Source: Candidatus Omnitrophota bacterium
GTDB taxonomy: Bacteria; Omnitrophota; Gorgyraeia; Gygaellales; Profunditerraquicolaceae
Length of the DNA stretch: 64,000 bases
Assembly (NCBI GenBank): GCA_043812955.1
Contig: JBDRLN010000018.1
Coordinates: 13,849 to 77,848, forward strand
Reading direction: 5' to 3'
Shown here one piece after another: positions 17,931 to 63,900 of this stretch (positions are counted from its first letter, which is position 1; each line of letters opens with the position of its first letter). The translations under genes were made by a program, and so were the position numbers. The notes beneath the pieces were generated by a model. It did no database searches, had not been told where the DNA came from, and saw only the letters and a list, made by a program, of their open reading frames with translations.

Positions 17931-17933
17931 GAT

Positions 17934-24957: not shown

Positions 24958-27900
24958 CTACGGCCTAATAGCAATAAATCTCATCCCTCCATAATAAAAA
25001 GTATTATACATATCATTAATCGCCTCGATTACCCCTATTTCTTTGAGGCTTTCTACATCAATCGGTTTAATATCAAGCCGGGGGTTAACACTTTTTAACT
25101 GTTCAAAATCAAACCTGCGGCCTTCATTTTTAACCAAAGCCAAAGCTATTGTTTTATATAAAATCCGGAAATTATTACTAATGGGTATCTTATTATAATT
25201 ATTTCTGCTAATTACCTTTGTTTTAAGCGATAATTCCTCCATAGCCAAATGATTAATTCCGTCGACATAACTCTTATCAACCATATCAGCCATCATAATA
25301 TCGTTTTCCGCCTCCTCAAATAACAGATTGAGTTGTGCCGCGTCTTCCTGGCTGAGGGCTTTACCTAAAATCCATCTTAATTCTACTTTAAACAATAATT
25401 CTTCAACCGATAACAAGGCCAGACTAGCTTTAAGATGAAACCCCCGGGCAAAATACCTGCTGGCATAAGAATCACTCTGCATTATCTCGGCAGTATATTC
25501 CGGAGTAAGCGCTAAGTTTATTTTTTCCTTAGCCTCGGAATATTTACCCTGTCGATTTAAGGCATCGGCTAAAATTATATGGCTTAAAACCAGCCAATCC
25601 TGTCTTTTATGATTCACCAACCATCTCTTAAACTTTAATAGTTCTTTTGCGTTATTTTCTATCTCCTGATTTAAATATACGCCTCCTACGTAGAACTTAT
25701 TTTTAGTCGACATTTTATCCAGATATTGGATTTTTTCAAAAATATACCTGGTCCGATTATCAGCGCCCTTAGACAAGCGGACTGCTTCATCAAAATCCGC
25801 TAGACACTCTTTAAGATTGCTTTTATCAAAATTAAGTATGGCCCGGATATAATAAGCTACCGGAGAAAAAAAATTCGGCGTATTGATAATCTCTTCGAGT
25901 TTATCAAAAGCCTCTTTAGTAAATCCTCTTTTTTTCTCGGCCAGTTTAAGATAAAAATCTTTCATTTTTATATCCTGCGGGTCATATTTAAATAGCTCGC
26001 CCAATAATCCTAATGCCAACGGATAATTCTTCGGTTCTCCTGATATAAGTTTTGAATTAATGATCCGGTATAATTTTTCCTTGTGCTTGTCAACAACCGG
26101 CGACGACGAGGGACACCCTTTCAGCCAATCGAGGGACACCCTTTCAGACAATCGGGATGATGTCCCCTGCTGTTTTACATCCAATACCATAGCCACCAAC
26201 GCTCCCATTCCTTGCCACGCTGGCAAACCTAATCGGGACACGCTGTCCGAGCCAAAGCGGACACTGTGTCCTAGAGCGGCCGGCGAGCTAGAACAAATAT
26301 TAGCTACTTCTGCAAGAAACCTTAATGTTTTTCTAAACATAATCTTGCCCACTCTATCCTTGCACCAAAGCGCCTTGCCAATATCCAAAGCCAAGGGATT
26401 ACAATCAAGCTTCCTTCTCTTTACATTAGAAAACCAGTCCTTCTGTAATTTGGCATAGTCAGACCCGGTAAATTCAATTTTCCCCATGAGCTTGACATTA
26501 ATAGTATTTAAGTCAAACTGTTCATCTTTGCTATTAAATACGTGGCCGTGGCGCCACATAGTTTCATCAAAGTATGTCCTGATAAACAAAATAACAGGCA
26601 AGTGTTTAAGGTCTTCTTCTGCGGCATCAAATTTATTTTTAATTTTCTTCATGCCTAATAGGAAAACCTCAAGTATCATCTCCTCTAAGAACTTCTTAAT
26701 ATTATTTTCTTCTATTCTGTTGCTTATAATATAAACATTGCCGTAAAATTGCTTAGAGTCGCTTTCCATTATTGAATTAAATAATGACTGCGGCATGCCG
26801 TGAATACCTATATCAGGCAATCTTTCAATTAATTTTTTTACCTGGATTTGATCTTGCCGTAGATTATTTTTAACAGCCGGCGAGCTTCCAACGCAAAGCG
26901 TATCGCCTGCCTGCCGATCAGGCAGTAATCCGTCACTTCTTCTGGCGGAAGACTGCGCCACCGGCAAGGCGGCCGGCGAGCTGGAGCGAAACGTACCCCG
27001 CGACGAGGTAGTTCCGTTTAATCCCGTATTATTTAAAGCCGCAAAGGGAAAGGTATATTCTTCTTCTATTTTCACCTCAAAATCCGCCAACCTCTCCTGC
27101 GCTTCTATAACGCATCCTATCCTGGAATTACTCTCATCCAGATCAACCATCTCTCCGACTAAAATTATCCTTTTCACTCCCAGTTCAAACTTTAATATCC
27201 ATCGTAACCTATCCCAATTTGTAGATAAGCCAACCGGGCAAGCCATCCCTTCCAATTCCACGGGCTCCAAATCATCTAAATAAGTATTAATTAAAATCCC
27301 GTATAAATTATATTTTCTAAATAATTTACCTGCCTCTGTCAATAAATCCATCTTTGGCTTTAACCTGATTGTACTTTTAATATAACGCTGGTCTCCTATC
27401 CCGGCGAATATGGGCCCAGGATAAGACCGGACACGATCGGATAACCTATGAATAAAACTCCGATAACCTCTAACGGCATTCCCTCTTATTGCTTTCCGCA
27501 GTATCAAGGGGACTCTCTTAAAATTCCTGCTGATATAATCATCTAACACATTTTCAAAAAATAACGGGTGGCTCCATAATATAATCTCGTGATTATTCCG
27601 CGAAATACTCCGCCGTAATTCCTCTGAGGCTAAAACTGTGGATATCGGGATAAGCCTTTGACCATTGCCTGCAGGCGGACTGGAAGGTTTAGGCCCTAAC
27701 CTATTGACGCTCCGATCAGCTACAAATTTGGAGGCAAACCCCAATAAAACCCTACCTAACCTAAGGAATTTAACCGGCGAGCTTCCTTTCGGCACTGGCG
27801 AGGCGGAGGTTTTTTGGACTAAGGGAACAGCTGTGCCTGCAGATTTACCCAGCTGATAAATATATCTAAAAGCCTCATCTGGATTGTCACAAGAACTTAA

Positions 27901-30900
27901 AAGCGCTAGATAGCCAAGGGCATCGGCATAATCATATACCCACGCATTGAACCTCTCAGTTAGAATTTGAGGAATTATATAATCGCCAGGCCCAAGCCCC
28001 TTAAATACTTCGTCCAGTTCGCTTAACGTATCTACTCCTCTTGATTTAAATCTCGGGTATTCATTAATAGTAATTATTTTTCTTAAAATGGCCTCTTTCT
28101 GCCGAAAATTAAGCTTAGGCTTAATATGTATTACATCCACCAAGTGCCAATAGGCAGCCCCTGCATAGCTAAATTTATACCCTTTAATTTTGTAAAAAAT
28201 CGTATTGGCATAAGCATGGGCTAACAAAGGATGGTCGGGCAATTCTAGAAGATGGGCCATTTCGTGCGCCATATACCAATAAAAAGCGGTTAATCCTTCG
28301 ACATTATCCTTAGGTATAATTATTCTGCCTTTAATTGTTACCCCCATAGAGGGAGACACAGGGAAGAGAAATTTGTTTATATGCCAGACTCCCGCAATAA
28401 TAACACTCAAACCTAAAATGAATTTACCAAAACCCCTTCTGGATAATATTTCTTGAGGGGTTGTTGCCTTTGCCCCAAAGTATAAAGCCAAACCCGATAC
28501 CCCTAAAAATCTTGCCTCTTGAAGTTTCTCTTGACCTTTTTCAGAAAATCTCGGGTGGTCGAGCGACCGAATAACTTCCTGACAAATTTCTTCTTCCGAG
28601 AATTCCTTAATCGGAAACCCGACAAACCTAGAAGCCTCTTTATATGCATCATATACATCTAATACTACTGGTTTTAGTTCTGGTTTAATTTCATCCCCTT
28701 TACTAAATAGAAAAACTCCGTCATAGAAAAGTTCTTTAAGTAGGTCTAGATAGGCGAATATCATCCCATATATTTTTAAACTTTTTAAGAACCCCCGCCT
28801 ACTTTGTATACCCTCTATAGAACCCTCTGCTGCAGAAGAAGATACAGAACAAATACCTTTATCGGATTTGCCTGATAACCTATTATTTGGCAATGGTTTA
28901 GATAGAGCGTCTCTAGAATCTCTTACTGCCGGCGAGACAAAGGCCGGGCTGGAAGATGTTTTATCCATTGATATGCCTAATATATTTTCTATAAAACTTT
29001 CCGGCCAGCTGAAATACAATTTAAAATCTATATTGTTGCCTTCTTTAGCTGTAAACATAAACTCAGGGACCCAAGAACCATCTTTCCTCAAATACCCTTT
29101 TGTCCTGGCGGGGTTAATTTCAAGCAGTGCAGAGTGGCCGCGAAATGACAGGGCAAAGCGCGCTAATTTAAATTCTCTCCCCAGCCGCGCTTCTAATTGA
29201 GTTATTGAAGGTAAATACCCGGAAGAAACAATCAGAATGGTTGCTTCTTGCGGGCTTATATTATTATTTTTTAATTTGGATTTCAGACTCCGGATAAAAT
29301 AATCCAGATCTGCGTCTTTGTTCTCCCTGTACTTTAGGTAAACCTGCGCCAAGGCAGCAATTTTTCTGTCTTTAGCAATAATGAGGTAGGCGTCTTTACT
29401 ATTTAAAACATTGGAGACAAAAGTTTTATTATCGTTGCCTATGCCGCGAAACTGGTTGCCGGAGCTAAAATTGTCTATAGAAGAGGTAAATAAAATTACT
29501 ATCGCTGCTGCTATTAAAGAAGGATATTGTAGACGCTTTACGTAATCTATTACTGGAGAAGATGTTGCAGAATAAATACTTCGAACTGAACCTGTTGGCC
29601 CGGCCTTATTCAACCCTCTTTTGGCGATATAATTTAAAAATAGTGAGCTGGACTTATTAGTTATTATTTGATAGTTCATAGTTAATAGAGAAGCATCTCC
29701 CATTAAACTACCAACTACTAACTGCGTACTATGAACTAAACTAGCCGGAGAACTGGTAGTTGGTACGGCCAGATAGACGAATTCAAAATCCGACTTTCTT
29801 TTGCCGCTAGAAGTAGTAAGCAGGGCTTTGGTGATTGATTCTAAACTAAGGCTGCTTCCATAAAGATGGTAACCAACCCCTATCTTAAATCTCTCTTCCA
29901 TGATGCCGAAATGTTCAAACAAAGCTGGACGCTGCGGCAAATAAACATAGTATTCATTTACTGAATGCCCTAATGCCTTTCTTAGCATGCTATAAATAAG
30001 AAAAGAGCCTAACCCTATTCCCCGGTAACACTCTTCCTCTACCTGAAAATAATACCTTTGCTCTGTTCCCATCTTCAGCTTACCTTTGCGGATATGAAAT
30101 AAATTATATCCTACCCACGCTTCATTAAAATCAGCTTGATCAACTTTGAGAATTAAATGATAAAATTGCTCGTCACTAAAAAATTTGACAAAATTCCGAT
30201 TTTCCCTTATTGCAAATATTCCCTTCTTATTCTTTACACCTCCGATGAGTTCGCCATCCATTGTCTTAAAGGGCAACTGTCTTAGTACCATCTCTAATAA
30301 ATTTTGGGCGTCTATATTTTTACCCGACGCCGGTGAGGCGGCGGTATATTTAGCGTTTAGCGAATAACGGTTAGCAGATAGATCAAATAGACTACTATAC
30401 ACTCTACGCTCCATGCTATCCGCTGCTTTTTCCACCGGTGAGGCGGCAACCTTTTGAATAATCCTAACTGGCACACACCCTGCGGTAAAGGAAGTCCCAT
30501 CAACAAAAGATTTATTAATCTCACTCGTGCACAAGGACAAGATGTAGTTTACTTTTTTATATTCCCGCTTCATTAATACATCCTTAAATCCTTGCTGCTT
30601 TAATAAAAAATTAACAATCCAAAAATCGTGTTTTGAGGCAATAATAATAAAACCGTTCTTATGCAATAATTCTTTAATAATTTTTTGAATCAAGTTCAAT
30701 ATGGCTTTATCCGCTCCGCCCTTGACATAAGGAACTATGTTCGCGTATAAACCCTTGCTCCAAACAGTCAATCCTTTTACAAATAATACATCTATGCCGC
30801 CCGCCTGTTTTATTTGAGGAAAATATGATTCCGTCTTAAAATTATTCGCGACTATCGTAGTTAGATTTTTTGTCTTCTCTTTAAAAAATACCGGTAAGTT

Positions 30901-33900
30901 CATTTTCTCGCTAGCCATATTTTCTAATGCCTGCGGGCTTTGAACTGTGATGCCTAAACCGAATCCATTAAACATCTCGGCATTAATCCCAAACGTCCTA
31001 GCGGCAAAATAGGAAACAAAATAATCATTGCCGATCGAATTATATAGGACATTGCCTCCTAAGACCCCCATTTTTTTCAGGAGATGTAATATTGTAATAT
31101 AGTGTATAAGGGCGTTATCTAATCTTAACTTGTCATACTTAATATAGTCTCTAGTCCTTAACCATGTTAACGTTTGCCGGTCTAAATGAATTTGGTCAAG
31201 TATCCTTTCTATGTCGTTTTCGAAGAATAAACGGTAGAAATATTCCTCATCTAAAGGCGAGCTGGACCCATTTCCACCCCGTAGGTGGAAATGGTTTGCG
31301 GCTGGCGAGCTTCCGACACAAAGCCTGGCGCTTGCCTGCCGGTCAGACAGGGATCCGCCACGTATTGTGGCGCGGGGCTGAAGCACTGGTTCCTCAAACC
31401 AATTCACTATCAATCTACGGGTTCCCGGGATCATCTCGCCACCATTGATGAGAGGGCTCGATGTCGAGGCGGAACGCTTATCCATTAACATTACCTCCGG
31501 GAAACCTTCACTCAGGAATTTTGCCAAAGTTTCAACTGCGAGCTCCGCATCTTCGCCTTCTGCAATAAGCTTTACCTGGGCTGCGCTTATCCATGAATCA
31601 ACGATAGCATCCGCAACCGCTGCCAGCGAATCCAGTATTTTTTTAAGATTTACGGTTTCATTTTTATGTTCTATATAGATACGGGATAAAAATTTATTAG
31701 CTAGCGCCACTAAATTGCTGATATCATGTTCGTGTACTTCTTCGCAATTATCAACTATACATATTTTTTCTATCCTTTTCAGAGTATTTTCTTCAGGTGA
31801 AGATTTTACCGGCGAGCTGGATATAACAAAACTGCTACTATTTACTTCTGCCATTTTCACTTTATCTAATTTATAATAAGTTGTATATACGGGATCAGGA
31901 ATATTAGAAACAATTCTAAAGGGATCTGATTTTTGAAAAATTAATGGGATGCCTAATCCGGCATTATAATTTACTATTTTCAAACCTTGATGTGGTATAA
32001 ATTTAAAATCTCTTCCCCAAACCTTTATACTCCGCAAAATTGTTTTAGGTTTTATGCAAACTAAATTTGCAAATCCTACTCCTTCCGGTTTCAGCCTCCT
32101 TTTAAGAACATTGTAAACTTCCACTCTATCTTTGAAATATTGGCCAACATTATACCCAACCACAAAGATATCAAATAGGCCGGCCCCCAGAAATAATTGG
32201 CCCTCGTTCAAATCCCGCAAAATAAAATTATTCCTAAGGTGTTGAGAGTATCTTTCCGCCCTATCTAGGTCTATTTTCACTCCTAACCTTTGCATAAATC
32301 GGCCGGCTATACTATTTGCGTCTATTTCAACGAGATCATGCTTCGCTAAGGAGTAAAAACTTATCCCCTCTATATTTATTCTTTCTTTTACTTCCAGCAA
32401 AAACATTAATTCAAAAAGTTCATAACCCCTGCCCGGGCCGACCCATAAAATACTGATTTCGGGATTTCTTTTCATACTTTTTTTAATTCTGCTTAAAATT
32501 GACTTATAGAGATGTCCGTCGAATGCTTGGTTAATCTCCCTGAAAAAGTGGCTAATATAACCTTCAGGATAGTTAATCATCGGCGAGGCGGCGGTATTGT
32601 TCCTTATGGCCGAATTGCGACCGGAATGAATCGTTTGATTGATGGATTCATTTTTTGACTCAATGCCAGACAATGGGCTAGATACAGCGTCTACATCTTC
32701 TTTTTTGCTTAAATTTGAAGATATCGATGAAGTAAAGATAAGCCTGTCCACCCAGAAAAAAATCGCCGCGCCGATTAAATTAGCTATGACCGTCGCAAAT
32801 AAGCTGACGCCTAACCACCAGACAACCAACCACAAAACAGGGGTACTCAACTGCCAACGGATAAGATAAAGAATAAACCTTTTTATTGATAGCCCGCTGT
32901 TCGTTTTTTCTGCCGGATTGCTGGATTCTTTCTCTACAGGCGAGGCGGCGGCATATATGTTATTGATTATAAAACTGGCTGAATAAACGGCAGGGTTTAA
33001 AAACGCAGCTTTAAAAATTAGCAGCGGCTTTGGACCTGCCCTGATAGGACAGCTATCCATCAGCGGACTTGAACCGGAGTTTTCCGTAGAATTATCGGTT
33101 AATGTAATAGCCTGGGCCAAGCTCTTGCCTTCCCAAAGTAACCTGGCTACAAAATATTTGGAAGGTACATCGTATGGAAAATAATAATCCAGCGCTCCAT
33201 ACAGCATCTTTCCGTATTTATAAGTCCAAACCGGTTCTCTTGATAGGTTATCCCATAAACTCACCCTGCTCGCATCCAGTAAATATTTCTGCAATATCCC
33301 TACCGGGACAGCGCTGGCGATCAATTCACCTTCTGAGATATATTTACCTTCGGTTTCGGAAGATTTAATCATCTGAGATAATAACCTTTTTTCTTCTAAG
33401 CGTATAAGATTTATTAAATTCGGCAATCCTTCCCGATGAGCCTTTCTCAATTTTCCTGGCCATAACGCGTGAATAAATTCATGGGCAACAGTTAGTTCGG
33501 AATTTAACTCTACTAAATCTTTTGACCAAAGTTTTCTCCGTTTAACCAATATAGTCCAATTGCCAAGCACGGACTTATAAGCTGTCCCTAAACCCGGACA
33601 ATAACCTCTACCTCGACAAAAATCATGTAGCCGATATTTTACATGCATATAAAAATACAAAATAATCGTAGAAATAGCGATGCTGATTAGGATAGAACTA
33701 AATTCGTTGTCCGGGATTAACCCAAAAGGCTTAATTATAAATTCAGCATATGCCCAGAAAACCGTAAAAGCAGGCAACCCCAACAATAAAAACCCGGCTA
33801 AAAAAATAACCGACTCGCCGATAAAACCTACCATGTTTAACCATGAAGTACGCGGCGTATACGGTCTAACCGTAATTGCCGAAATAAATTTTTTAATTTC

Positions 33901-36900
33901 CTCGGTTGGTATCTCCGGATATAGGCGCGCTGCTATCTCTTCCATTTTTTTGCGAGCAGATTTAGCGTATTTTTTTGAAAAAGATTCTAAACCAATCGCC
34001 TTCTCAATAAATGAATCGATCTTCCGCGTCCATAGCGGCGCAACTCCAAAAACTCTATTTGTTACCGGCGAGCTGGAACAGCCTTCAGCTTCGGATATTT
34101 TCTTCTGGCTTAGGCTGGCCAAATCGGCTATAAGCCGATCGAGTTCTTTTTTAAAAGCTTTTCCTGACTCCTGACTCCAGAAATAATTAAATACCTGGAC
34201 TCTGGATAAACCATTTAGAATATCGCAAAGCATAACTGGATCTATTTTCATTAATGGCTTAAGCCGGCAACAAAGATAGAGGTTAATATCGCTAATACTC
34301 AAATTATGAGCGCCTAACCACATCTCGCTATCCCGGATTAACAAACCTATCTCATGCTCTATCCTCGCTCGCCTATCAACTATTTCAATAGCCCTTAAGA
34401 AAATATATAATTTCTTAAAATATTCCCCCAATTTTAGCTGTAAAGCATTCTTTTGTTCTGCGCTGACGGTTTTCTCGCTACTTTTGATATATTGTATGCG
34501 CAGACGAACATTATTAATTAATTCAACCAATATCTCGCCGGGATTATAAATCTTTTCCTGAAAACCAAACTGGGGATGATTTAAAAACTCTTTTAAATCA
34601 CTGGGATAATTTCTGGCCCCAAGGCGTAAATTACTAGATCTTGCTATAACTAAAGCTTTCTGAATAACTCTGTTGTTATCCGCTGAATCTACCATTGTCA
34701 TAACAGAATTTAAAATACCGCTAATACTTACATCGCTACTCCCTTGAAAAATTTCACTCAGTAGCATTTTTTGTTTTTCCCAATCAGCGCCTATTCTGTT
34801 AAATGCCTCTTCAATTAAACGATTAGACAACAAGCTATTACTCTTAGCAGCCGGTGAGCTGGCAGAAACCATGCTTACTCCGATAATTACATCGAATTTC
34901 GCCCCGCTTAACTGTCTTATTTTGGCGTTGATTATTCTATCCATATACCGGTAGTTCTCGGGTAAAAACCTTATCCCATACTTTTTCTCTTCTTCTCTCG
35001 CAAATGCCAAGGTGGTATCGCTACGGAGAAAATTTTTCATCTGGGCTAAGGGGAACTTCGCAGAGAATCCCTTATTTTCAGTAAAAATAAATTTTGGAAC
35101 TCTGCGCTGCCTAATTCCGGAGCCGTTAAAAATGAAGGCTTTGATTGTCTTTACCACATAACCGTCATCTGCTTCTCCAAAATATACGATATTCCTTATA
35201 TTACTGAATCTGGGTTCGGTAAGCACCTGAAGGTGGGGCCTGCGCAATTTCGAAGTTCCGATTACCTGTTGATATAGCTTACGCAGGGTAAGATGGAATT
35301 TAAATTCAAAAACAGTATTATCGCTGATCGCGTCAAATTCCTTGCCCGCCCCCCTCTTATCATAAAAAATCGGGTTAACTGATTGCACAATGCCCAAACT
35401 TATACCTTCTAAAGTAGTCCCTCTTTTGATGATTGCCTCATAAAGCCCGGATATTTCTCCGGCTAGACCCAGGACCTGTCCATTGCCGCTTTCTCCCTTA
35501 TAAACCCCTTCTGCCATTTTAGTAATGGCATTATTAACAGCCGCTTGGACGACAGATTCATTTTTACCCTTATAAACAAACAGCTTCTGCATCTTAAGCC
35601 ATAATCTGTTAAAAGAGAAATCTCTAGCGGCAAAAGCACTGATTACCAGAAGGCATTCTTTTAATTCTTCCGGCAAGGAAGAAGTTTTTATCTGTGTAAT
35701 ATTTTCAAGAAGGCTTTCAAGCGGCGAGGCGGCCGGCGAGCTGACGCCCTCATGGTATAGCCACAACAAATCACTAATTATCTCAGCCTGCCATTCAGGG
35801 ATTAGCTTAAGAAATGACGCATGTGTTACAATTTCATCTGGGGAATTAATTTTTGCTATGCTGTTATCGGAGAGTTTGAGGTTCGTGGTAATATTTAATA
35901 CCAGCTCCGGAGGGGCGCGGGCTTCTTGAGCCAGGCATACTGCCAGCTTCTGCAAACCAGCTCGCGACCCCAGAGCAATCCTACCTTCAGCTAAAATCAC
36001 GCTATATTTACCATTATTCAATTTAAACTTAATCTTAGCAAACAATTCCTTGCCGTATTCCGTTTCTGCCTCCTGCTGATCCTGCGCAGATACATCCAAA
36101 TACGATCTGATCGGCGAATTTACGCCGTAGACGTATCCGCTTCCGGCGGTGAACTGTGCCGCCGGCGAGGCGGCGCCTTGGCGCAAATCAATAAATTCAA
36201 ACCCCTTAGAACTAGCAATATTGGGTAATCTCCAGGGTGTGTTATTATCAAATGGGGCTTGCGGGTTTACGGCTAAATCTAATACCATATCGAACTCGGT
36301 TTTAATCGTACTCCTCACTAAGCCCAGCTTGCTCCAAAAGTCAAACTGACATGGCAGAGCCTTTAAAACAATAAACTTTTGGAGATTTAGACTATGCGCT
36401 TCCTCTATAATTAATGAGCCTATTGCCGAAAAAAGCCCTTTTTCCTGAAATGACGGACTAATATTGATATCCGCACGCCGGTTATCAATAACCATAGCAG
36501 CTTCTCTTTTATCCACGCGGTAATGACAGTAGCCGCAGAAAGGTCGTTCTGTTTCTATAAATTTATATCCTTCTCCCTGATAAAGTTTATCTTGATTAAT
36601 CCTATGTAAATCAATACTGATTAATGCTTCGCTGGGTATTTCCTTTTGCCTTAATGTAAAAAGCTCTTCTTTAATTAAGACAACCAACTGCAACACGCCG
36701 AATTGTTCTTTTTCTAATAACTCAGCGTTATCTAAACTAATTTTAACTGGCGAGCTGGAACCCCTGGAGCCCGATACCGGCAAAGCAGCAGATGATCCGG
36801 CTAGATAGACGGATTCAAAATCCGACTTTCTTTTGCCGCTAGAATTAGTAAACAAGGCTTTGGTGATTGATTCTAAACTAAGGCCGCGGCCATAAAGACA

Positions 36901-39900
36901 GTAGCCCACTCCTTTTTCCAACCTCTCTTCTTTAATACCGAAATGCCGGAATAAACCCGGCTGCTGCAGATAAACATAATATTCATTTACTGAACGCTCT
37001 AAAGCTCTTCTTAACATACAATAAATAAGAAAAGAGCCCAATCCTTCATTCCAATAATCTTCTTTTATCTTTAAATAACTTTCTCGCTCGTGCCCCATTT
37101 TGAGCTCATTTATAAGAATATAAAATAAGATATTTCCTACTCGCGATTCTTTAAAATCAGGCACGTCAACTTTTAGAATTAAATAATGAAATTGTTCACC
37201 TTGGCTTAAATTGATAAAGGTGCGCTTTTCTCTTACTATAAACATCCCTTTCCTGTTTTTTATGCCTCCAATTAGCCTGCCGTCTATCGCCTTAAGCGTG
37301 ATCTGCCTTAGCGCATACTCAAGGCCGTTTCTTTCAACGCCTGAATTGCCCGCCGGCGAGCTGGAAATTGTATTAAATTCTTGGGGACTAAATAGAATCT
37401 TTACGTCCGCGCCCCGATACAAACAGATCCCTTCTCTCCTTCTTATCGTCCGTCTGTTTAACTCTAAACCATACTGTTTCTTATAAATATCTTCCGCTAA
37501 ATCAGCAACTAAATAAGGGTTCCCGGGAAGGAAGTAGTAATCTGGGCCGAATTCTACTAAGATATCGATCATATCTATAAACAGCCTATTTAAACCCGCG
37601 CTATTTACGGCTTTTCTCAAAATAAAAAACTGGGCATAGGCATATTTATGAAAACCTGCGTCATAGATTGTGTTTGAACTTATAAACTTAAACGCTGATT
37701 TAAAAATACAATATGTGAATTCATTTCTTTGCTCCTGTCTAATCTTTAGTTGATTTAGTAGGACAGCCGCTGTAAATTCTGCAACAAATTCCTGTAATCC
37801 GGCAAAGGCTCTATATTTTGAATCAACGGAAAGCGGATTAGAATTATCCTTTAATTTTACAATAAACGATTGATTAGGGAAAAGAGCGTAAAGCCAATTA
37901 TGGCCTATTTCATGCGCGATTATTCTTAGGATTCCTTCAATACCATGGCTCAAATAATAGCCCTTAAGCCTGGCATAGTCATATTTAAAATTCGCGTTGG
38001 CTGTTCCACGATAAGAACCTATATCTAAATTCTGTATAATCTTTTGCGTAATACGCCTAACTATCGCGGGCGTAAATAAGGTATCTAATGACAATAACTG
38101 TACCGAAAGCGCAATATTCCACCCCAATAACTCTTCTTGAATCATTTTTAGCGTATTGTATTTAAAATACCGGTCTATCTTTTCTCGATACTCCATAGAT
38201 ACAAGTTTCTCGTTCAAATCACTCCTTACCAGATCGATTGAACGCCGTAGCAAAAAATTGATCCGCGAATTAATTAATAGGATTAGTTGATGGGTTCCAA
38301 CTGGCCATTTACCAGTTGCCGGCGAGCTGGCCTGCGGCGCCAGCGGCGAAGAAACAAATTCAAATTCTGATGGGTTTCTTTGGACCTTGATTCTTACACC
38401 AAGATGATCCGAGGCCAAGAAGATTCCTCCTTCATTTTTTATAACTTTTAATCCCTCAAATAGTTTCTTTAAACGTTCCTGATTCACTTCATCTGTTTTA
38501 AATAAAGAACGATACTGGGATATATACTCGTTAAAGGTGGGTTTAATGGTAACCGTATCAACAAAATCTCCATTCTCTGCCCAACGAAACACCCTAAAAA
38601 CAAGATTATAAATATACCAAAGAAACATTATCTCTGGATTTATCGCTGCTAACTCATCATCTATGACTTTATAACTACTCTTAAGCCTCCCATCGGGAAA
38701 TTTTATTATCATTTTATTAACATACCCTACAAATTTGCTTACCCTCCATTCAGACACCGGCGGGCTTGAGTCGAGAACCTCATTTTTTTCTATTTCTACA
38801 AATATTTCCGGGTATAGTTTCTTTAACCATGGCGTAATTTGTACGTCATTTTCTTTATAGATCACCTTAAATCTCTCTCCCAATTCTTCCGTAAATGGCA
38901 ATTGCATGCGGCCATCCGCCAAAGAATGGCCCCTAAGTATGAGCTTAAGCGCTGCGTCAGTAAGTTTAAGGCTAACTTTCGGATTTTCATTTTTATAATA
39001 TAGACTTAAAAGATACCAAACTTCACCGATATATATCGGAATATTTAAAGATTCATGATAAGACATATCTGGCTCTCTTTTTATTACCTCATCCGCGCAA
39101 TAGTTAAACATATCCACAATTAAATCTTCCGGCAGCTGACATAGTATAACGAAAAGTTCTTTATGTACGCTTTCACTTTCTAAAAATAGATAATATATAT
39201 TACTAGGATCAATATAATAATAAGCTTTCATGACTTCCCTTACCCACCTTGCCGTACTTTCATAGTCACCCCCTATCTTAAGATTGCGTAGTTTATCCTC
39301 TATTTCTTGAATAGATATTCCTTTGGGTGGAAAAAGATACCGTCCCTCCTTTAAAACGCTCATATCAGGCGTTCCCCATTTCCATTCCCGCTGCCGCCAA
39401 TAGGGATGCATATTAGTCTCAACCGGCGAGGCGGCGGTTTCACTCCTGACCCTGCTTTCATCCGCCGGCGAGCTGGCATAAAGCGTAGATGCCGGTATTA
39501 TTTTTCCGTCTACGGTTGCATCATTACCGCTAACCAATAAAGCAGAATAATCTCTCCGCAGAGAACCAGTAATGGCTCTGTGAAGATGTGCCGGCAAAGG
39601 CACCTCTTCACCCTGTTCTATCAAAACATTCGTAAAAAATATGGCTTCTGCTCTGTGTTGCGTTAACATGCCACTCTGCGCCGGATCTAAGAGATCGATA
39701 TATTTCGGCTCTACCAACGCGCGGATGTTGTTTTTCAAACGACAATAACGCGTGTCGTCCTTTACGATTTCGAAAAAGATATCAAAGTTTTCTTGTGTTA
39801 TACACTCGCAGACATAGGCAAGCTTATAAATACCCATTTTTACCGCGTATAAAAGCGGTATATTTTTATCCCAAGCCTCTATTCCTATGCTCCATGGTAA

Positions 39901-54900: not shown

Positions 54901-57900
54901 GCCGACAGGGTTAGCCGGCGAGGCTATTCGAAATATAAACTTTTTTCCCGAGACTTCAAATTTATACGGATAAGGTAACGCTTCAGCTTTTTCGCCCTCC
55001 AGCGGCGAGCTACCTAATTTATGGGAGTTGGAGCAGCTACTAATTTTTTGATTATTTTCTTTCCTTTGCGCAATTTCATCCAAAATGGTTAAATTATTCT
55101 TAAAAGAAGGATTTTCTAAAAAGCTCATTTCTTTGGCTTTCATAACTAAAATAGCTGTTAAATCCGGATTTACTGATATATTTTTATAGGCAAACCCGCC
55201 TACACATTCAATCGGCAACCTACCATTAATAAACCAATATTTACCTTTCCTCGCAGGCACAAGGCCTTTTTCTTTCAAGCCAGTCCTGTTAAATAATAAA
55301 GTTACTTCTTTACTGCGTAAATAACGGTCATCATCGTCTTCCCAAGAATCAAATAACCAAACATCTAACATATACCCGCTATTTAAAAATTTTACGAGAG
55401 ACTCTTCGTCGGTGTTATGAAAAAAATATTCGATAGATCTATGTAATTGAGCGCTATTTAAAATACCCCCGTCATTTACCGGCGAGCTGGAAGATTGTTT
55501 CTTGAGTTCATTCCAATCAATTGTTTCCCGGCCTCCGGTTTCTTTAATGGTCAGCAGGTGCTTAGACTGTATTGCTGCTGTAAGAAGGCCGCTCAAAACC
55601 TCAATTCTCTTTATCAAACGCGGCATTACCTCGATAAAGCTCGCAACATCATATGTCTCTTTCAGGGTAGCAACCGTTAACCAAATCATTTGAGCCGTAA
55701 CACCCAAATCCAACGAAGAATCCCAAAGTAACGGCAAATCCCGTTTAGCCTGCTCCAGGAAGCTCGCCTGGCCATTGCCTAAATCTGTTCCGCTTGCCAT
55801 TAATCGAATAGCGTCTTTAATTTCATCGGCGTTTTTCTCGACTTCTTCGCAAAGCGAGACAGATTTAACCTGCAAAACGCTATTCTTAATTCTAACTACC
55901 TGTTTATTCAAACCATCCACAAAGGCCTGGAGTTTAGTAAATTCCTCATCGGAAAGCGGCGAGGCGGCGGAATATGTAATATTGACAATTGGACTGGCTG
56001 AAAATACGGTAGGGCTTGAAGGAATAACTAAAGGAGATAATTGTGGTTTTGGCCCTGCCCGGGCAGGATTTATCGTATTTGAGTTAAGTAGGGGTAATAT
56101 TATATTTTGCGGATTAATTACATTAACAATTGGGCTACTATTAGCTATGTCTATTGCCAACCGGGTTGCTACTGAAGCGCCGCACGGTCTCTTGGAATAA
56201 AAAGTAGAATTTCTAGATTGCTCTAGCGGCAGATTGGAATGGCTGGCTGCCAATGGACTTGAGCCGGATGAGTTCTTGGAAAGCATACTATTCGTAAGTT
56301 CGAGCTTAATAAATACTGCCTGTTTATCCTCAGCTTGCTCTAAACTATCATACTTTCTTTTTGCGCCAGAATGAACGATGATTTTATAAATCCGCCCTAA
56401 CTTAAATTCCCCTATTGTAAGGCTTGAAATAGGGATATAGGCCACGCCATAATCGCCTTCTTCGCTGATTGTATACATCCAGGGATTACGGCCAAGGTCG
56501 ACATCTGAAATATTACAAATCCAAACTTCATCTTCATCTAACAAACTGACAAAAATGTTTATTCCTGCCTGCGTCTTGGGAAAGATAATTTTTAAAAATT
56601 TATAGCGGCGTAAATCCTTAAATGGTTCATCATTTCCATTTTCATCTTTCGGGCTATTCTTCCAGCAAGAGAACTCTCCATTTTTGGACGCTGTATCATC
56701 AAATCCTTTGGCAATAATTTTTGCCGGCAGAAGAGCTTTAGCTGATTCCCCGCGTGCCACATTAACAATAGCAGGATACTTAAAAGCCACTGCTCCAACA
56801 ATTACGGCCTTTAAAAGCTGTCTGCGGGTTAAGACCTTTGAATTAAATGAATCAGTGCCAAAACTAAGCGGCGAGGCGACGGATGGCGAACTGCTTACAC
56901 GCGCAGGCGAGCTGGCGACGTAAGCGCCCTGAGATTCATTTCCGTAATATTTGCCAAAGGCAAGAATAAAACTCGTCCTTATATTCTCCAGATATCTCCG
57001 GCAGGGCGATAACCAATACTCTTTGTCCCGACTCTGCCAATACTGTTTCTGGGGTGAATCTATCAAAGTTATATAATCAAATTTAAACCCGTTTTCTTTT
57101 AACTTCTTCAGGAAATTATCTATCACTTCAGGCAGGTTTTTTGGATTCACATACTGAAGCGCATCCAGGTCTATACTCAACACACGGTAAATGCGCGGCG
57201 AGGAAATCTTTTCTTCTGGCGGGTGTAACGCAGTAAAACTCAAGGCGGTTTCGGTTATCCTGCGCTGCATTAACACTCTCCCCCCCGGCATATTTTCCTG
57301 TATATCGATAAGAAATCTTCCACTGCTCTTCATATCTACGCTCACCGGCCAATATCCACGACGGGTATTAACCAACATTGCTTCTAATACAATATTATCC
57401 CGGTAGAAGTTACTGCCAGTAATAGGCAAATCATATAACTTCACTAAAGTGCCCTCGATCACCAGAGGACCTATCCATAACCCAGGGGAACGCATTCTGG
57501 CATAATGACGTATTGTCTCTATGTCCGCCGGATTAATAAAGTAAGGGCATTGTTTAAGCTCTCCGTTTAACCAGCGCTCCAGGAGTTCCCGGTGTCGGAA
57601 ATACCGGTCGTTTCGTATGTCAAGACGTTCATTCTCAACCCGGCCTTCGTCAACCCATCTAAAAAATGCCATTTCTTTCGTTTTCTTATCCAGTAGTTCA
57701 TGCAACAATGGCGGAGTAGGAGCCCCCGGATTTCTGTCGTCATGCTGATCCGTGTTGTAAACCACAAAAACACCACCCTCTCTCAGTCTTATTTCGGTAA
57801 GAAGGCCGTATAAAAGATTATGGTCTGCGAAAGAGAATACGGATATCCCATTACATTGATAGAGCTTGATATCATTTCCGTAGGGGCAAGGGAGTTCTAT

Positions 57901-60900
57901 GATGCGCTGCGGGTTGTATTCTCTATCTACTGGCCAGGCGGGAATACTGCTAAACCGGTTCAGCAAAGACCGTAACCAACGCCAAGCTTGTAGCGGCGAA
58001 CTAAAGCCTCTTTCTTTAGCCAGCGGCGAGGAGGCAGAATTTATACCAGCTACAAGAATACTTTCTTCAGGCTGAGGGCTTAAAACAATGAATTTTCCTC
58101 TTTCCGGGCCACTGCTTAATATTTTCCCTTTTTGATCAAACTGTTTATTCAAGAAAATAAGGGCATTCTGAGTAAAGTAGGTGCCTTCTTCTAAACCTTG
58201 AATATCTTCAAACCCTGCAAGCGGGAGCTTTTCCGAGAAAACGCTTTCTGCCAGAAGCAAAAAAAACAGCGTCGGTGCTTTTAAGAATACCCGGGAATAT
58301 AAACACGCGCTCATCCCCCTGCGAGGATACTCTGCGCATTTTTCATGCCTTATCGGGTATTTAGAACATCCGGAGGCAAAGATAAGCCCGCCTGCCGATG
58401 AATAATCAAAAACTGCCCGAATAGCCCAGCAAGGAAAATACGTATCGAAATCATTTCCTTTCTTCCCGCGATAAATACCCAGCGCCATTTCTCTTCTAAC
58501 AACCGGGCAATCCCTGCCGTACTCCTTTTTTAAAAATCTTCTTATTTTAGGATAATCGTTGAATCTAAATTTTCCCGGGATATCCTGCTCCAAGAAACAA
58601 CAAAAACTATCTACGCAGCGCCTTCTACCTAATATCTCTGCGAACCTTAAGTCTACCAGGCCTTCTTGGAAGTTTACTCCGGAAAAATTATTTGGCGAAA
58701 AGTTAACCGGCGAACTGGCTTCCTTTTTAATAAGCTCCTGGTTTTTAACCAATTCCGGATAATTAATTATTTTAGGGTTATTTAAATCGGCTAGGAAATC
58801 TTTATATCCCACTACTCTTATCAGGCCCTTTTGGCCCTGATAGCAAGTATTATACATATGCACAATTACTTTTCCCGAGGGATAAAGAAATATACCGATA
58901 CGTGAAATATCTATTGATTTGGTTTCTTCTATCTTAAAATTCTCCTTTAATACATATTTCGTAGTTAGTATTTTTTTAATGTCCGGAATCCTTGATATAT
59001 CCTCGGATTCATCTGTATATAACATAAGTATCCTGGTCATCGGATCCCTGATCAACTCTAATATATATTCCTGGCTTAAATCATACTTAAACAAATCCCA
59101 GATATCGGTATCACTAGAATACCTCCTTAAGTATAAAACTTTGTTCCGGCTATCGGCTATAACCATATCTATGCATTGAGATAGAAACTCAACCACGGGT
59201 CTATTCTTAACCTCAACAGGATAATCTAAATAGCTCATTCTTCTGTATCCGGAAAGGTCGACCAAATCTTTCGTTTTAATTATTACCGGAGAGCTGCCTT
59301 TGTAACCTTGCCACGCTGTCCCAGCTAAAGCGGACACGCTGTCCGAACCAAAGCGGACACTGTGTCTTAGAATCAGCGGCGAGGCAATAGCAGGTGCCTG
59401 AAAATTATACGCTATTGGGCTTGAGCCGGATCGAAATTTATTTTCAGCCCTGCGTCGCTTTGCACCATCAGGGGCCTTCCCGGTATTTTTTATAAATTGA
59501 CCCGGAGAAGGAAAGCCTTTATCATTTACATAATGAGATGAGAGATAGTTAATGCCGCCGTGCCCGGGAACAAAAATAAACTTTTTTCCGCTATTACGGA
59601 AGATATTTTCTTTAACCCAGTGTAAAATTAAACCTAACTCGTTGGTAAGCCTGAAAAAATCTCTTTCCGACAGTTTCAAAAAATCTTTCAACGCCCCGAA
59701 TTCTATTAAAATGGCATTATAGCCCAGGATTTTTGAAACTTCTTCTTTCCACTCGCGGACCGAGACTTTCTGATTTTTAAGCTCCACCACATAATTACGG
59801 CTATCCCGCGCGAAAAATACCTTTAAACCGGGATCAGTATTAAAATGGCCCTCTGCCACTAAACTGTCGCTACCATATTTATCTTTAATCAATAAAATCA
59901 GATTTTTAAAATAATCATTGCTCTTTAACCCACTGGGCGGCTCATAATATTTTTTCCCAAATATAATTGATAACCTTTTAAACAAATGATGCGCAACTAC
60001 TGCCTCAGGTATCTCGGATAACCCAGCAGCTTGAATATACTGTTTAGTTTCATCAATTAAACCGGGCAAAACGGAATCTTCTGAAACTGACGATTTAGCT
60101 TCGATCAGCGCCATATCCGCTGCGGGCTGATTATTTAAATTATTATCCTTACCATCTGTAAATCCCAGGTTAAATAAACCTATAGTTAAAATAACTGCCA
60201 GGTTAACAGGCCTAAAACTTGCCGGCGAGCTGGCTGTTTCTTTTAAAATTCCTCCTATAAATTCATCCTCAAAATACATATCTGTGTCAATTCTGTAAGG
60301 TAGGTTTTCTTTTTTTAGATGCTTTCTTAAACAAGCGGTGTCTGCGCTGCCGGAGAGAATAACTACTCTGGGCCTGAAAAATCTGGTTAAATCAGCTAAA
60401 TCATCATTCTTAATGCAATCTTCAGATGGCCCGACTAAACAAGGAATGCCAAAATGTTCCAAATTAGCTACTAAAATATCAACGCTATCATTAAATCCGC
60501 TTTTTTTCTTTAATTCGGAGAATAAACAACCCATATATTTAAAGCTGACTCTTTCTTGCGGCAAGGCGTTTACTTTAATAGACTCAAGGAGAATTCTCTT
60601 AGACTCTTCATGCCTATCCAAGGCGTATACTTTTTTAGCCCCTAATGATAAGGCTGCGAAAGTTATCACTCCGTCTCCGCAGCCGGCATCTACCACCACT
60701 TTATCTTTAATTTCAAGATGCTGCATCCCCAGCAGGCATCCCGCTGTCCAATGTTGAAAAGTCCTGTTATCATAAGCATAATCTTCTTTGCGCATATTTA
60801 ACATATCTACGCCAATGGCTATTAACCCCTGTTCGGTGAATTTCATCAAGTCGAATAAATGCAAATAATAATTATCAATAATAACTATTCGTCCCGAACG

Positions 60901-63900
60901 ATAAAAATAAGTTTCCATATTACTGGAATGAGGCCCAACATGAAGGTTCACTCTGTCTTTATGCCCGTTAAAATTTACGTATCCCGCGTAACGGATGTCT
61001 TCCTTAAAACCATAATCACCCAACTTATTCGCTAAATCTGCCTCGATCGCTAAGGCCTGTATTTCATCAGCCGGATTTAAAGATTGAGCAGAAGCAGCCG
61101 GCGAACTAGACCATTTTCCACCTACGGGGTGGCGCCCACCTACGGGGTGGAATAAGATATAATTCCTTTGCACCGGTGAACTAACCTTATCGCCCAATCT
61201 TCCGATCGGACTATAAACAACTTCCGAGGCTTTGGCTATTCTTAAGACCGCATTCACATCTCCTGCTATACGATAAGATTTTATCCCATATTTAATCCTG
61301 GTTTTTTTTACGGCCCAGGCAGCTGCTTCTAAAACCTGCCTTCTTCTTAAATTTACCTGCTCGATAGAAAGCCATTTTCCGGTTAGGGCCTGTTCAGTTT
61401 CAAAACTGGATACAATGACTCCGCCGGCATTACTCAAGGTATCAGGGATCACTATAATGCCTCTTTCGTATAATTTAAGCTCGGCATCACTGCTTGTCGG
61501 ACCATTAGCCAGCTCTACCACTATATCAGCCTTGACCAAATCCACGTTATCCCGCCTTAACTGATTTTCTAATGCCGCCAGGACTAAAATATCAACCTGC
61601 GCCCCGATTATCTCAGCAGACCTGCCAGACAAACCGATCCTCCAATCTTTAACATCGAATTTTCCTAACATCTGCGCGTTGACCCTCCCCTGCAGAAAAT
61701 AATTTACCAGAGCTTCTCCTTGCAGACGATTATTTGCCCACTCCACCATAGGCGTTAGGTCTTCCAGGCTAAAACCTTCCTTCTTATAAAGAACGGCTGT
61801 ATGGTCGCTGATATATTGGATAACCGCCCCTTTTTTGACTAAATCTAAAGCTGCATATGAAGCAACATTGCCAAAACCCTGTATAGCCACGGTCTTTAGC
61901 CTTAAACCATCGACTATAACCCGCATAACATCCACTCCGCCAAAACCTGTTGCCTCAGTCCTACCCCAGGAACCGCCTAAATCAATTGGCGTAACCGGCT
62001 TGCCGGTATAAACTCCCAATAGAGGGAATGAATGACCCATCTTTGAATAACGGTTGACCTCTTTAAGCAAAGGCGTATCGGTAATGTCACGCTCTCCTTT
62101 ATTTATTATCCCGATCAACTCCGCGTATAGCTCCGGGTAATTATTCTGTATTTCACTGGTTTCTTCCAGAAAATATTTTATATATTCATCGGCATACCAA
62201 GAGAGGATCCTACCGTTTGTATTCATATCCGGGGCAGGTATATCTATATCTATACCGACCTGGTTATTCCTGGCTAACTCCCGGCTATGTAACCTGGAAA
62301 TCAAAGCTAAGTTATGCGGATCGCGCCAATTTTCGCAATCCTTTAAAACCAATTTTCCGGACTGAGCGGTTAATTCCCCGATAAAAACAATCCCTTTCCC
62401 GCCGCCCAGATTTAAACCCGCCTGTGAATTCTTTAAGGACATATCCAGCGACAGAGCATTGCATAATTCTTTAACCCACTTAATAATGAAATGTTTTATT
62501 TCCTCTTCCGTTGCCCGGAGTCCATTTAAACGCTCAATGGCTTGAGCGAATAATCCCGAACTTTCATTCATCAGGGTTGAGCCCGTGATATAACGTATTC
62601 CGCCTTTGCCCGGGCCCAAAACTACATTATTCCTAATTCTTACCTGATATATATTAGCCTGGTAGATAGAGTAATTCTGCCTTATCAATTCCGCGCTATA
62701 CCAGCTATCATATACATTAAAAGGAATCTTTAGTTGATTAATTATTCCCAGATTTACGCTATCTACGTAAGGCCTGGTTGCTTCCAGACGCTGCAGTGTA
62801 TCCTGCCAATAAGGATTAACCGTTTCCTGAATAAGTTTCTGGACTGCGGATTGAATGGAAGAAGAAGCAAGGACCCAACTTTGGCTGGCAAAAGGGTACA
62901 GATTTAAATAATTATGGTTTAAAGAATTAACTATGCTCGAAAAACTTATTCCCCGCGTTAATTCTTCTGGCAGAAAAATTTTACCCTCAACATCGATTAA
63001 GCCATTGACATTAGTATCAGTTTCCTGCATCAAGAGATTAAACTTAACGGATAAATTAAAGTTAATTGATCTTATATATTCATATAACTCAAGCCTGCAT
63101 TCATTAGTTTTAACTTCAATAATTAAATCTATGTCCGCGCCGGGATAGATATCTTCAAAGTGCTTCACGGAACTGCCAAATAACCAGATTTTTTTAATAT
63201 CGTCATAACGACTAACCAGCTCCTCGGTAATTAATATTGAGAGCGCATACCTTAATATACTATGCGCCGGTTTATAGCGGCTTGGGTCATCTAAAAGGTT
63301 TAACTCTGAAATTAACTCCTCTGCGCCATTTAAACGTAATCTTTGAGAAGTCTTAAACAAAGCCTTCTGCCATAATTTTTCCACCCTCATTGCTATAATT
63401 GTAGTTACGTCCGCGCCTACGGGCGAAGAGGAGATTGCTTTACCCGCAGAAGAAGAAAATCCGGGCTTTTTCGCCTGCAATTCCCACATTTTGTATATTT
63501 CTGTAATTAGGCCATTGACTTTTGCTTTTTTTATTTTGACAATAGTAAAACCTTTAAATAACTTCTCCAGAGATTCCGGTTCAAAAAACCGGTAAGGCAG
63601 CCCATCAAGAATGTAGATCTCTTTATCGACCGGTAAACCTTGGCCATATTTACCATCAGCCTGAGAATATACTATTGCAAAAACTCTTCCCCTCGGCTTA
63701 AGCACCCGCCAAATCTCATCAACTATACGCCTCATCATCCTATCGTCAAAAGATATCAGGCTGCAGTTAGCGTAAACTATATCAAATTCTCCATTAGAAA
63801 ACGGCAAAGGTTCTGTTAAATCCTGGACCTGGGCAACCAGCCTGCCTGCAATACCCTGCCGGATTGCCTCTTTAGATACCCGTTCTATGCAAACAGGGGA

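Follow-up and report, generated by a model that had tools for sequence, protein, structure and literature searches.

A recurrent Ser-Ser-Pro junction peptide in a giant open reading frame of Candidatus Omnitrophota

A giant open reading frame and its junction peptide

We analysed a stretch of 64,000 nucleotides (nt) from contig JBDRLN010000018.1 of a Candidatus Omnitrophota bacterium (assembly GCA_043812955.1; G+C content ~40%), hereafter the window, which is dominated by a giant open reading frame (ORF) that is divided by a recurrent Ser-Ser-Ser-Pro (SSSP) peptide. The giant ORF lies on the minus strand at 24958..63975 and comprises 13,005 stop-free codons; the frame has not closed by base 64000, so that the N-terminus of its product lies beyond the window. 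With a length of at least 39 kb, its full extent reaching beyond the window edge, it is longer than the lower limit of 20 kb used by Seymour 2023 for giant genes (PMC10066038), while West-Roberts 2023 applied a criterion of more than 90 kb (10.1101/2023.11.21.568195).

The giant ORF encodes 102 Ser-Pro pairs, 64 of which have the form [S/A]-S-P-[A/V/L/I], compared to 1.9 ± 1.5 expected from shuffles of its own residues and to three such sites in the flanking proteins (7,389 amino acids, aa). The density of SSP[AVLI] sites is thus 4.9 per 1000 aa in the giant ORF and 0.4 in the flanking genes. A logo built from the window and 74 sites of relatives showed a linker of five residues, namely a small residue, Ser, Ser, Pro and an aliphatic residue, and the junction peptide can be written [S/A/G]-S-S-P-[V/A/L/I]; the flavours SSSPA and AASP found in the window are lineage-specific and richer in G+C. 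An earlier note on this DNA, made from the sequence alone, had reported about 50 module boundaries sharing such a motif. All 49 coordinates that it listed fall within 10 nt of a Ser-Pro codon pair, 46 of them at sites of the strict form, and 18 further strict sites were found, three of which (63429, 61182 and 26106) lie outside the range it had given.

Cutting the protein at the motif yields 65 segments, of which ~45 are substantive (85-1067 aa, typically 150-380 aa) and the remainder short. Pfam and NCBIfam matches include several S-adenosylmethionine (SAM) methyltransferases (PrmA-, PrmC/HemK- and CheR-like), a nucleotidyltransferase, a glutamate dehydrogenase (GDH), a B12-binding radical-SAM enzyme, an alpha/beta hydrolase, a weak Fic match, an HPr-like domain and TPR repeats; many modules are orphans. 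None of the 64 linkers lies inside a Pfam envelope (14 envelopes covering 12.5% of the chain; p = 2e-4). The HPr-like domain takes up the whole of a 116-residue inter-linker segment, and the Fic-like module likewise exactly fills its own. In keeping with the end-to-end matches with stand-alone homologues (see below), the modules each correspond to an entire stand-alone protein. An HExxH signature is present in three modules, compared to 0.18 expected, always in the context hydrophobic-A-H-E-x-x-H; judged by sequence, the window has no other candidate proteases. The coordinates of linkers, inserts and selected modules are collected in Table 1.

Downstream of the giant ORF, bases 1-24,900 hold 21 ORFs of ordinary housekeeping genes, all on the minus strand bar one. 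Their products include UppS, a GH57 branching enzyme, PurA, SerA, ClpP, trigger factor, LptB/C/A, KdsC, KpsF, KdsA, KdsB, a PfkB kinase, an MsbA-like ABC exporter, CheR and a PilZ protein. No similarity was detected between the modules of the giant ORF and the flanking proteins, which rules out recent capture of neighbouring genes. Scans of the window with Rfam and for tRNAs gave no match. The trigger-factor ORF (13843-14718) encodes 291 aa, in which the N- and C-terminal domains were matched and the central peptidyl-prolyl isomerase domain was unmatched. Two intergenic repeats of the type TTATCCGCGTAAATCCGTTATTTTATCCG (3172-3281 and 14731-14803, 85-90% identical) each lie at the 3' end of a minus-strand gene, upstream of the next, and may represent a shared regulatory element. 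The tetranucleotide CCGG is ~3.7-fold above the mononucleotide expectation in the giant gene (217 vs 59 expected), and the flanking genes are similarly dense in it.

Table 1. Linkers, in-frame inserts and selected modules of the giant ORF, in window coordinates
Feature	Position	Strand	Remark
Linker S-SSPV	26095..26106	-	
Linker S-SSPA	26278..26289	-	
Linker G-SSPA	26875..26886	-	
Linker S-SSPA	26971..26982	-	
Linker G-SSPV	27772..27783	-	
Linker S-ASPV	27793..27804	-	
Linker S-SSPA	28942..28953	-	
Linker T-SSPV	29551..29562	-	
Linker T-SSPA	29743..29754	-	
Linker A-ASPA	30328..30339	-	
Linker A-ASPV	30433..30444	-	
Linker S-SSPL	31252..31263	-	
Linker G-SSPA	31300..31311	-	
Linker T-SSPL	31450..31461	-	
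Linker S-SSPV	31807..31818	-	
Linker V-SSPL	32671..32682	-	
Linker A-ASPV	32935..32946	-	
Linker G-SSPL	33061..33072	-	
Linker S-SSPV	34063..34074	-	
Linker A-SSPA	34849..34860	-	
Linker A-ASPL	35719..35730	-	
Linker V-SSPA	35731..35742	-	
Linker A-ASPA	36160..36171	-	
Linker S-SSPV	36745..36756	-	
Linker S-SSPA	37351..37362	-	
Linker A-SSPA	38317..38328	-	
Linker V-SSPL	38341..38352	-	
Linker A-ASPV	39421..39432	-	
Linker A-SSPA	39463..39474	-	
Linker G-SSPA	40405..40416	-	
Linker A-ASPV	40489..40500	-	
Linker S-SSPA	41191..41202	-	
Linker S-SSPV	41989..42000	-	
Linker S-SSPA	42460..42471	-	
Linker A-ASPL	43135..43146	-	
Linker S-SSPA	43702..43713	-	
Linker S-ASPV	44329..44340	-	
Linker A-ASPI	44908..44919	-	
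Linker T-SSPV	45007..45018	-	
Linker S-SSPL	45622..45633	-	
Linker V-SSPV	47821..47832	-	
Linker S-SSPV	48982..48993	-	
Linker S-SSPV	52192..52203	-	
Linker S-SSPA	52297..52308	-	
Linker S-ASPV	53425..53436	-	End of Fic-like module
Motif I-ASPA	54913..54924	-	May be intra-module, not boundary
Linker G-SSPL	55000..55011	-	
Linker S-SSPV	55477..55488	-	
Linker A-ASPL	55954..55965	-	
Linker S-ASPI	55987..55998	-	
Linker N-SSPI	56128..56139	-	
Linker G-SSPL	56251..56262	-	
Linker V-ASPL	56866..56877	-	
Linker A-SSPA	56902..56913	-	
Linker F-SSPL	57991..58002	-	
Linker A-SSPL	58021..58032	-	
Linker A-SSPV	58705..58716	-	
Linker G-SSPV	59284..59295	-	
Linker I-ASPL	59374..59385	-	
Linker G-SSPI	59413..59424	-	
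Linker A-SSPA	60220..60231	-	
Linker S-SSPA	61096..61107	-	Before PrmA-like module
Linker V-SSPV	61171..61182	-	After GDH module
Linker S-SSPV	63418..63429	-	After N-terminal methyltransferase module
D1 insert	26867..26973	-	Palindromic, linker on each side
D1 insert copy	31292..31398	-	
D1 insert copy	40397..40503	-	Folds as long hairpin, z = -3.9
D4 insert	26210..26287	-	Copy of 17930-18045 element
D4 insert copy	59306..59383	-	
In-frame tandem arms CCACCCCGTAGGTGG	61118..61158	-	HPVGG twice; related to hairpins 13084-13132 and 22698-22738
D3 insert	32913..33002	-	Peptide ...NIYSAASP
D3 insert copy	44886..44975	-	
D3 insert copy	55932..56021	-	
HExxH module	37363..38319	-	HEIGH at aa 8688; candidate zinc protease
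HExxH module	33073..34065	-	HEFIH at aa 10165; membrane-like segment
HExxH module	27805..28944	-	HEMAH at aa 11904
Module aa 8875-9073	36757..37350	-	Paralogue of aa 11216-11407, homology between linkers only
Module aa 11216-11407	29755..30327	-	Paralogue of aa 8875-9073

Related giant proteins and the exchange of modules

A search with the first 1,260 residues of the giant protein matched three proteins, two of which are giant-gene fragments of Omnitrophota metagenome-assembled genomes (MAGs) with SSSP[A/V/L] junctions. The third (P0001/L003) is a stand-alone protein of 803 residues with its own Met start and a hydrophobic N-terminus; it combines GDH and nucleotidyltransferase in the order opposite to that of the window and lacks the SSP motif. 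A genome scan with the Fic-like module added three more Omnitrophota loci of 10-21 kb, open throughout and carrying 3.0-3.8 sites per 1000 residues, and an exhaustive profile search with the same module recovered 24 proteins among 1.8 billion, some of them stand-alone (210-250 residues, matching the module end to end) and others fragments of giants. Close relatives of the window modules were found only in MAGs of Candidatus Omnitrophota/Omnitrophica. Since related Omnitrophota fragments carry the same junctions, the window gene belongs with the giant ORFs of this phylum, a placement that the earlier note had missed. A metagenome scan with the Fic-like alignment gave no relative, and one with the GDH alignment returned only ordinary glutamate dehydrogenases of ~30% identity, which are uninformative for linkers. 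Word-indexed protein searches with a 5,000-aa query and with a six-sequence Fic-like alignment gave no match despite the database holding known relatives, which we take as a miss of the method.

The boundary peptide is conserved across related giants, and other lineages use different boundary peptides. At orthologous junctions the peptide is kept while the codons differ; the end of the Fic-like module, for example, reads GCC-TCG-CCG in the window, AGC-CCG in L004, AGC-CCA in L005 and TCT-AGC-CCG in L007. Linkers, whether orthologous or paralogous, show no stronger conservation than the modules to which they belong. Between the related fragments L002 and L001, the peptide at orthologous positions has changed from SSSP[A/L] to ASSA[V/L/A] in L001 (also written SSA[V/L/A]). 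Three further mosaic multi-enzyme proteins share the Fic-like module and have boundary peptides of their own. P0013 (L009; Omnitrophota, 4,210 residues; SIS, trehalose synthase, ROK/phosphatase, GT20 and Fic-like domains) carries DGG at nine places, all between Pfam domains; P0021 (L008) carries RAEVR at eight sites; and P0019 has the boundary peptide AAGLEE, the latter two proteins being unassigned to lineage. The codons of the DGG and RAEVR sites vary freely without uniformity. P0013 and P0021 each contain one HExxH module.

Modules have been duplicated and reordered with breakpoints at the junctions. Those common to the window and its relatives occur in different orders and with different neighbours: GDH precedes the nucleotidyltransferase in L005 and P0001, and the order is reversed in the window; the PrmA-like module lies at residue 977 in the window and, in L007, downstream of the Fic-like module by 3,000 residues; and the distance from the radical-SAM to the Fic-like module is 400 residues in the window and 1,120 in L004. 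The PrmA-like, radical-SAM, Fic-like and GNAT-like modules likewise stand in other orders and neighbourhoods in L004 and L007. Of 17 ends of homology blocks, 11 are no more than 20 aa away from a linker, compared to 17% expected (p = 2e-5). Within the giant gene, only two paralogous module pairs were found, at 52-59% and 33-37% identity, and their similarity is bounded by linkers. The earlier note had proposed a shuffling junction and a comparison of related giants for module gain and loss at the motif. In that comparison, breakpoints lie usually at linkers in both partners, and shuffling is supported as a pattern, though not as a mechanism, by the block ends, the reordering and the linker-bounded duplicates.

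The GDH and nucleotidyltransferase blocks (61212-63417, compared with L005 and P0001/L003) share ~50 residues at both edges, as would result from a tandem duplication that was later trimmed. Seeming duplications of modules in L091, a public Omnitrophota contig, were discarded as a likely assembly (k-mer) artefact, since they rest on two exact 127-nt repeats (3697-3823 = 8029-8155 and 5073-5199 = 8256-8382).

Nucleotide preference and palindromic inserts at the junctions

The junctions are also marked at the DNA level. AGCTCGCCGG occurs in 15 exact copies vs 0.1 expected and CCTCGCCG in 14 vs 1.2 expected, every one on the minus strand within the giant gene, and matches to the 12-mer CCAGCTCGCCGG with at most two mismatches number 35 on the giant gene's coding strand and one or two in each other strand or region. 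Counted inside versus outside the giant gene as the earlier note had suggested, exact copies of the motif are, on the scale of the window, confined to this gene and strand. The positional profile contains ~14 informative nucleotides, (T/G)CC-(AGC|GCC)-TCG-CCG-G(C/T), with sharp edges and background level on either side.

Codon choice at the linkers was compared with context-matched nulls drawn from every ORF in the window. TCG encodes the Ser preceding Pro in 44 of 64 sites (null 23%, Ser codons before CC), although TCG makes up only 8-11% of Ser codons overall and is the rarest of them. The second Ser before Pro is AGC in 28 of 47 (null 7%, Ser codons before TC), the third is TCC in 15 of 20 (null 30%), and Pro is CCG in 46 of 64 (null 44%, Pro codons before G). 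The exact string AGC-TCG-CCG was found in 17 of 47 linkers vs a null of 0.7% (p = 6e-25). Where Pro departs from the consensus, its codon is CCA, one transition from CCG, in 10 of 18 cases vs 23% expected (p = 0.003). The preference is statistical, position-specific and base-specific. It bears out the earlier suggestion of a constraint beyond the peptide, as three successive serines take three different codons in fixed order and the bias exceeds both the codon usage of the window and the neighbour-context nulls. Describing the DNA as nearly invariant was too strong, since the exact 9-nt consensus occurs in 28 of 64 linkers and the others have at least one synonymous difference; and of the two codons that had been called rare, TCG is so, whereas CCG is the commonest Pro codon (33-39%).

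In the pooled relatives, TCG precedes Pro in 44% of cases vs a background of 6.5% (p = 3e-14), and Pro is CCG in 56% vs 33%, indicating that the codon preference is not private to one lineage. The modal linker form of L005 is the same 12-mer as in the window, and compared with the relatives, the window giant gene has by far the most uniform linkers.

Several ordinary causes were considered and rejected. Codon usage and neighbour context fail against the context-matched nulls. Plain GC enrichment or GC-biased conversion is ruled out by the choice of TCG, not TCC, and of CCG, not CCC, and tRNA scarcity by the three different Ser codons in fixed order, three of the four preferred codons being common. 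A genome-wide uptake or Chi-like sequence does not agree with the absence of the motif from the 25-kb flank and the opposite strand. Palindromes of restriction-site type (GCCGGC, CGCCGGCG) were rejected because the fourth codon is free at its third position and an excess of CCGG runs through the whole window, and internal Shine-Dalgarno or start signals after the linkers because the flanks are unconserved. The nucleotide-level preference is thus unexplained by codon usage, context, tRNA scarcity or GC content, and copying together with the modules is our best guess, which we hold loosely.

The junctions also tolerate palindromic repeats. Four repeat families sit in short segments between linkers, where every copy keeps the frame and contains no stop codon, and the in-frame repeats are restricted to linker regions and module junctions of the giant ORF, which indicates that the junctions are structurally permissive. 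Several inserts are bracketed by near-identical copies of the motif and hence behave as mini-modules. Families D4 and D8 have both intergenic and intragenic copies. D4 matches an intergenic palindromic pair at 17930-18045, upstream of kpsF, and the second family with intergenic copies matches hairpins of the form CCACCCCGTAGGTG...CACCTACGGGGTGG at 13084-13132 and 22698-22738. That the in-frame inserts are copies of intergenic palindromic repeats, intergenic copies having been located for two families, had escaped the earlier note. The 17930-18045 element consists of four copies of the 13-bp palindrome GGACAnnnTGTCC immediately upstream of the kpsF start codon, and the same unit recurs within the D4 inserts. 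Family D3 encodes the peptides ...PIRAGPKP... and ...PARAGPKP... (~33030-33050, aa ~10311, and ~56045-56070, aa ~2638), both of them similar to the RAGP end of SecM's translation-arrest peptide, possibly by coincidence.

Interpretation and comparison with known systems

Our favoured reading, to which as a whole we give a probability of about 0.5, holds that the SSSP motif regularly punctuates a mosaic giant protein built of ~45 mostly unrelated, enzyme-sized and self-contained modules, that the peptide is a processing site and that the uniform DNA stems from the copying or re-formation of junctions. Two features typical of polyproteins are present, namely multiple units equal to stand-alone proteins and a five-residue junction peptide conserved at 64 sites. 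A fixed, lineage-specific peptide at every junction of unrelated units implies that the peptide is read by a protein, most plausibly a processing protease. The SSSP peptide would then be the recognition site of an endopeptidase that cuts the precursor into its modules, as in a viral polyprotein or a MARTX toxin; a proteolytic site had also been among the hypotheses of the earlier note. The uniform DNA (CC-AGC-TCG-CCG-G) may have arisen as junctions were copied along with modules and then decayed by point mutation; alternatively, junctions may have been re-formed by in-register recombination at the junction microhomology before decaying. Under copy-and-decay, the nucleotide uniformity would carry no separate translational signal.

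Several results weigh against this reading. Pfam detected no peptidase domain in the 13,005 aa. Compared with Pfam and PDB sequences, the three HExxH modules showed no relative of known structure, and structure predictions for an HExxH module and for a two-module segment spanning a linker gave predicted local distance difference test (pLDDT) values of 33-37 and were unusable; for these reasons processing is something that we infer. The drift in L001 indicates that Pro is dispensable there and that the SSP motif is not indispensable everywhere. Copy-and-decay explains neither the enrichment of TCG before CCG in distant relatives (44% vs 6.5%) nor why the linkers of the two paralogue pairs are no better conserved than the module bodies. 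A length of 12-14 nt is short for RecA-dependent recombination, and no recombinase, integrase or transposase was found among the genes of the 25 kb downstream, the upstream side lying beyond the window.

The peptide could instead be only a hinge, a short standard interdomain linker that works and is therefore reused in one enormous uncut chain such as a surface coat or an adhesin. Omnitrophota giants have been seen in the literature as structures of the cell surface or of predation, and peptides spread over the length of one giant have been detected; tolerance of 25-60 aa insertions, as expected of a passive spacer, and the loss of Pro in L001 point the same way. Passive linkers, however, normally vary in sequence and length, whereas here a fixed five-residue peptide persists between modules that are only 30-70% identical, and other lineages have equally fixed but different peptides. 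Glutamate dehydrogenase is moreover normally hexameric and is hard to picture as functional when tethered in a 13,000-residue chain, so that a hinge alone seems unlikely to us. Somewhat less likely still is that the 13-14 nt CC-AGC-TCG-CCG-G(C/T) is itself the functional unit, either as the core of a recombinase site in a protein-module integron or as a site acting at the RNA level. Such a site would account for a position- and base-specific codon preference beyond every codon-usage and context null, for the strand and gene specificity and sharp edges of the motif, for the recurrence of the same modal 12-mer in some relatives (L005), and for modules shuffled at the motif and palindromic mini-modules bracketed by near-identical copies of it. 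It fits poorly with orthologous linkers that differ in codons between species, with an exact consensus at only 28 of 64 sites and with a 25-kb downstream flank without integrase or transposase; giants with DGG or RAEVR lack the DNA uniformity, showing that the architecture needs no DNA site, and because the sites are direct repeats throughout, the main effect of an active recombinase would be the loss of modules. We are more doubtful again of a combination, in which the 13-14 nt junction would be the core site of a dedicated recombination system that swaps modules in frame as well as adding and removing them, and its peptide would be the processing site, with lineage-specific pairs of site and peptide (SSSPV, DGG and RAEVR).

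Two other proposals concern the serines and their codons. Post-translational modification at the boundaries, for example O-glycosylation or phosphorylation of the serines before Pro, would suit giants thought to be surface-exposed, and in secreted proteins of bacteria and eukaryotes, linkers that are rich in Ser and contain Pro are typically targets of O-glycosylation. It is nevertheless improbable, as the window gives no hint of a dedicated glycosyltransferase or kinase, the DGG and RAEVR peptides of other lineages have no hydroxyl residue, and the DNA bias is left unaddressed. Most improbable is a programmed translational pause at the boundaries, raised in the earlier note, by which rare codons would aid co-translational folding. 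The rarest Ser codon, TCG, is indeed used in 44 of 64 linkers and is enriched in relatives too, but it is the only rare one of the four preferred codons; TCC, AGC and CCG are common, and a scarce tRNA would not give three Ser codons in fixed order. A ribosome pausing at the junction would still hold the last 30-40 residues of the upstream module in its exit tunnel, SSP is to our knowledge not a stalling motif, and the DGG and RAEVR punctuation shows no codon preference or uniformity.

Whether they act as one chain or as cut pieces is a standing question for the Omnitrophota giant genes, which are among the longest known. Cleavage of their products into smaller ones has been proposed, with the statement that information on cleavage points is absent and that this blocks piecewise structure prediction (West-Roberts 2023, 10.1101/2023.11.21.568195). 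If the junction peptide is such a boundary, it offers explicit candidate positions for cutting or swapping and a rational basis for dividing these proteins when they are annotated, expressed or submitted to structure prediction. Lineage-specific peptides and shuffling at them suggest a general grammar by which very large bacterial proteins are assembled from gene-sized parts, and the junctions' codon preference offers a modest but clear example of selection or copying on DNA within a coding region; it may hint at how modules are added.

Like the window gene, the known Omnitrophota giants are very long single ORFs with few annotated domains, poor conservation and scattered methyltransferase, radical-SAM and TPR domains (10.1101/2023.11.21.568195; PMC10066038). 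The Archaeovorin-type domain set comprises glycosyltransferases, glycosyl hydrolases, methyltransferases, peptidases (C39/S8), SAM enzymes and NUDIX (10.1101/2023.11.21.568195); methyltransferases and the B12/radical-SAM enzyme are present in the window, whereas glycosyltransferase, glycosyl hydrolase, NUDIX, C39 and S8 domains had no Pfam or NCBIfam match in the 13,005 aa. Neither West-Roberts 2023 nor Seymour 2023 nor a 2026 complete-genome survey (10.64898/2026.06.07.730766) describes a boundary motif, modular shuffling or cleavage positions, the first two describe no codon-level feature of the giants, and text searches of the literature on the motif and on Omnitrophota polyproteins returned nothing relevant. 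The SSSP punctuation thus appears to be undescribed in the searchable literature and to be a feature of an already known gene class.

The MARTX toxins of Vibrio carry a modular array of effectors in one polypeptide, release them by inter-domain processing and vary in effector content between strains via gene exchange (PMC6315884, PMC5555677). The Fic-like, alpha/beta hydrolase and protein-methyltransferase-like modules of the window share this effector-like theme. Different from MARTX, the window protein has 10-fold more modules, a fixed five-residue junction peptide and a nucleotide-level bias, and no Pfam match to RTX repeats or to the InsP6-activated C80 cysteine protease domain was found in its 13,005 aa, its N-terminus lying beyond the window; it may work alike but is not a member. 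Viral polyproteins also place unrelated units in one ORF and use a short lineage-specific peptide read by a cognate protease. The window gene differs in being chromosomal, bacterial and set among housekeeping genes, with proteases that are only candidates, and we know of no codon-level uniformity at viral cleavage sites.

The inserts recall Rickettsia palindromic elements and MITEs (transposable elements of miniature size with inverted repeats), in which intergenic palindromic repeats are also read through in frame (PMC10969869, PMC1779305). The window insertions differ in being confined to module junctions, and the likeness covers the inserts only, not the SSSP peptide. In polymorphic toxins (VENN in CdiA, PxxxxDPxGL in Rhs), a short peptide with conserved DNA marks the point of exchange, and the Rhs point is also cleaved. 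Each of those proteins has a single junction, at which a constant body meets one variable tip, whereas the window protein has ~60 junctions and all its modules are variable. In integrons, unrelated cassettes follow one another in a direct array with a short conserved core sequence between them, sometimes beside palindromic DNA. Their cassettes are separate genes, whereas the window modules are fused in one frame with translated junctions of 14 nt, and no integrase or attC-type site was found in the window, beyond which the upstream side lies. If a dedicated recombination system does act at these junctions, the Omnitrophota giant genes would be integrons for protein modules.

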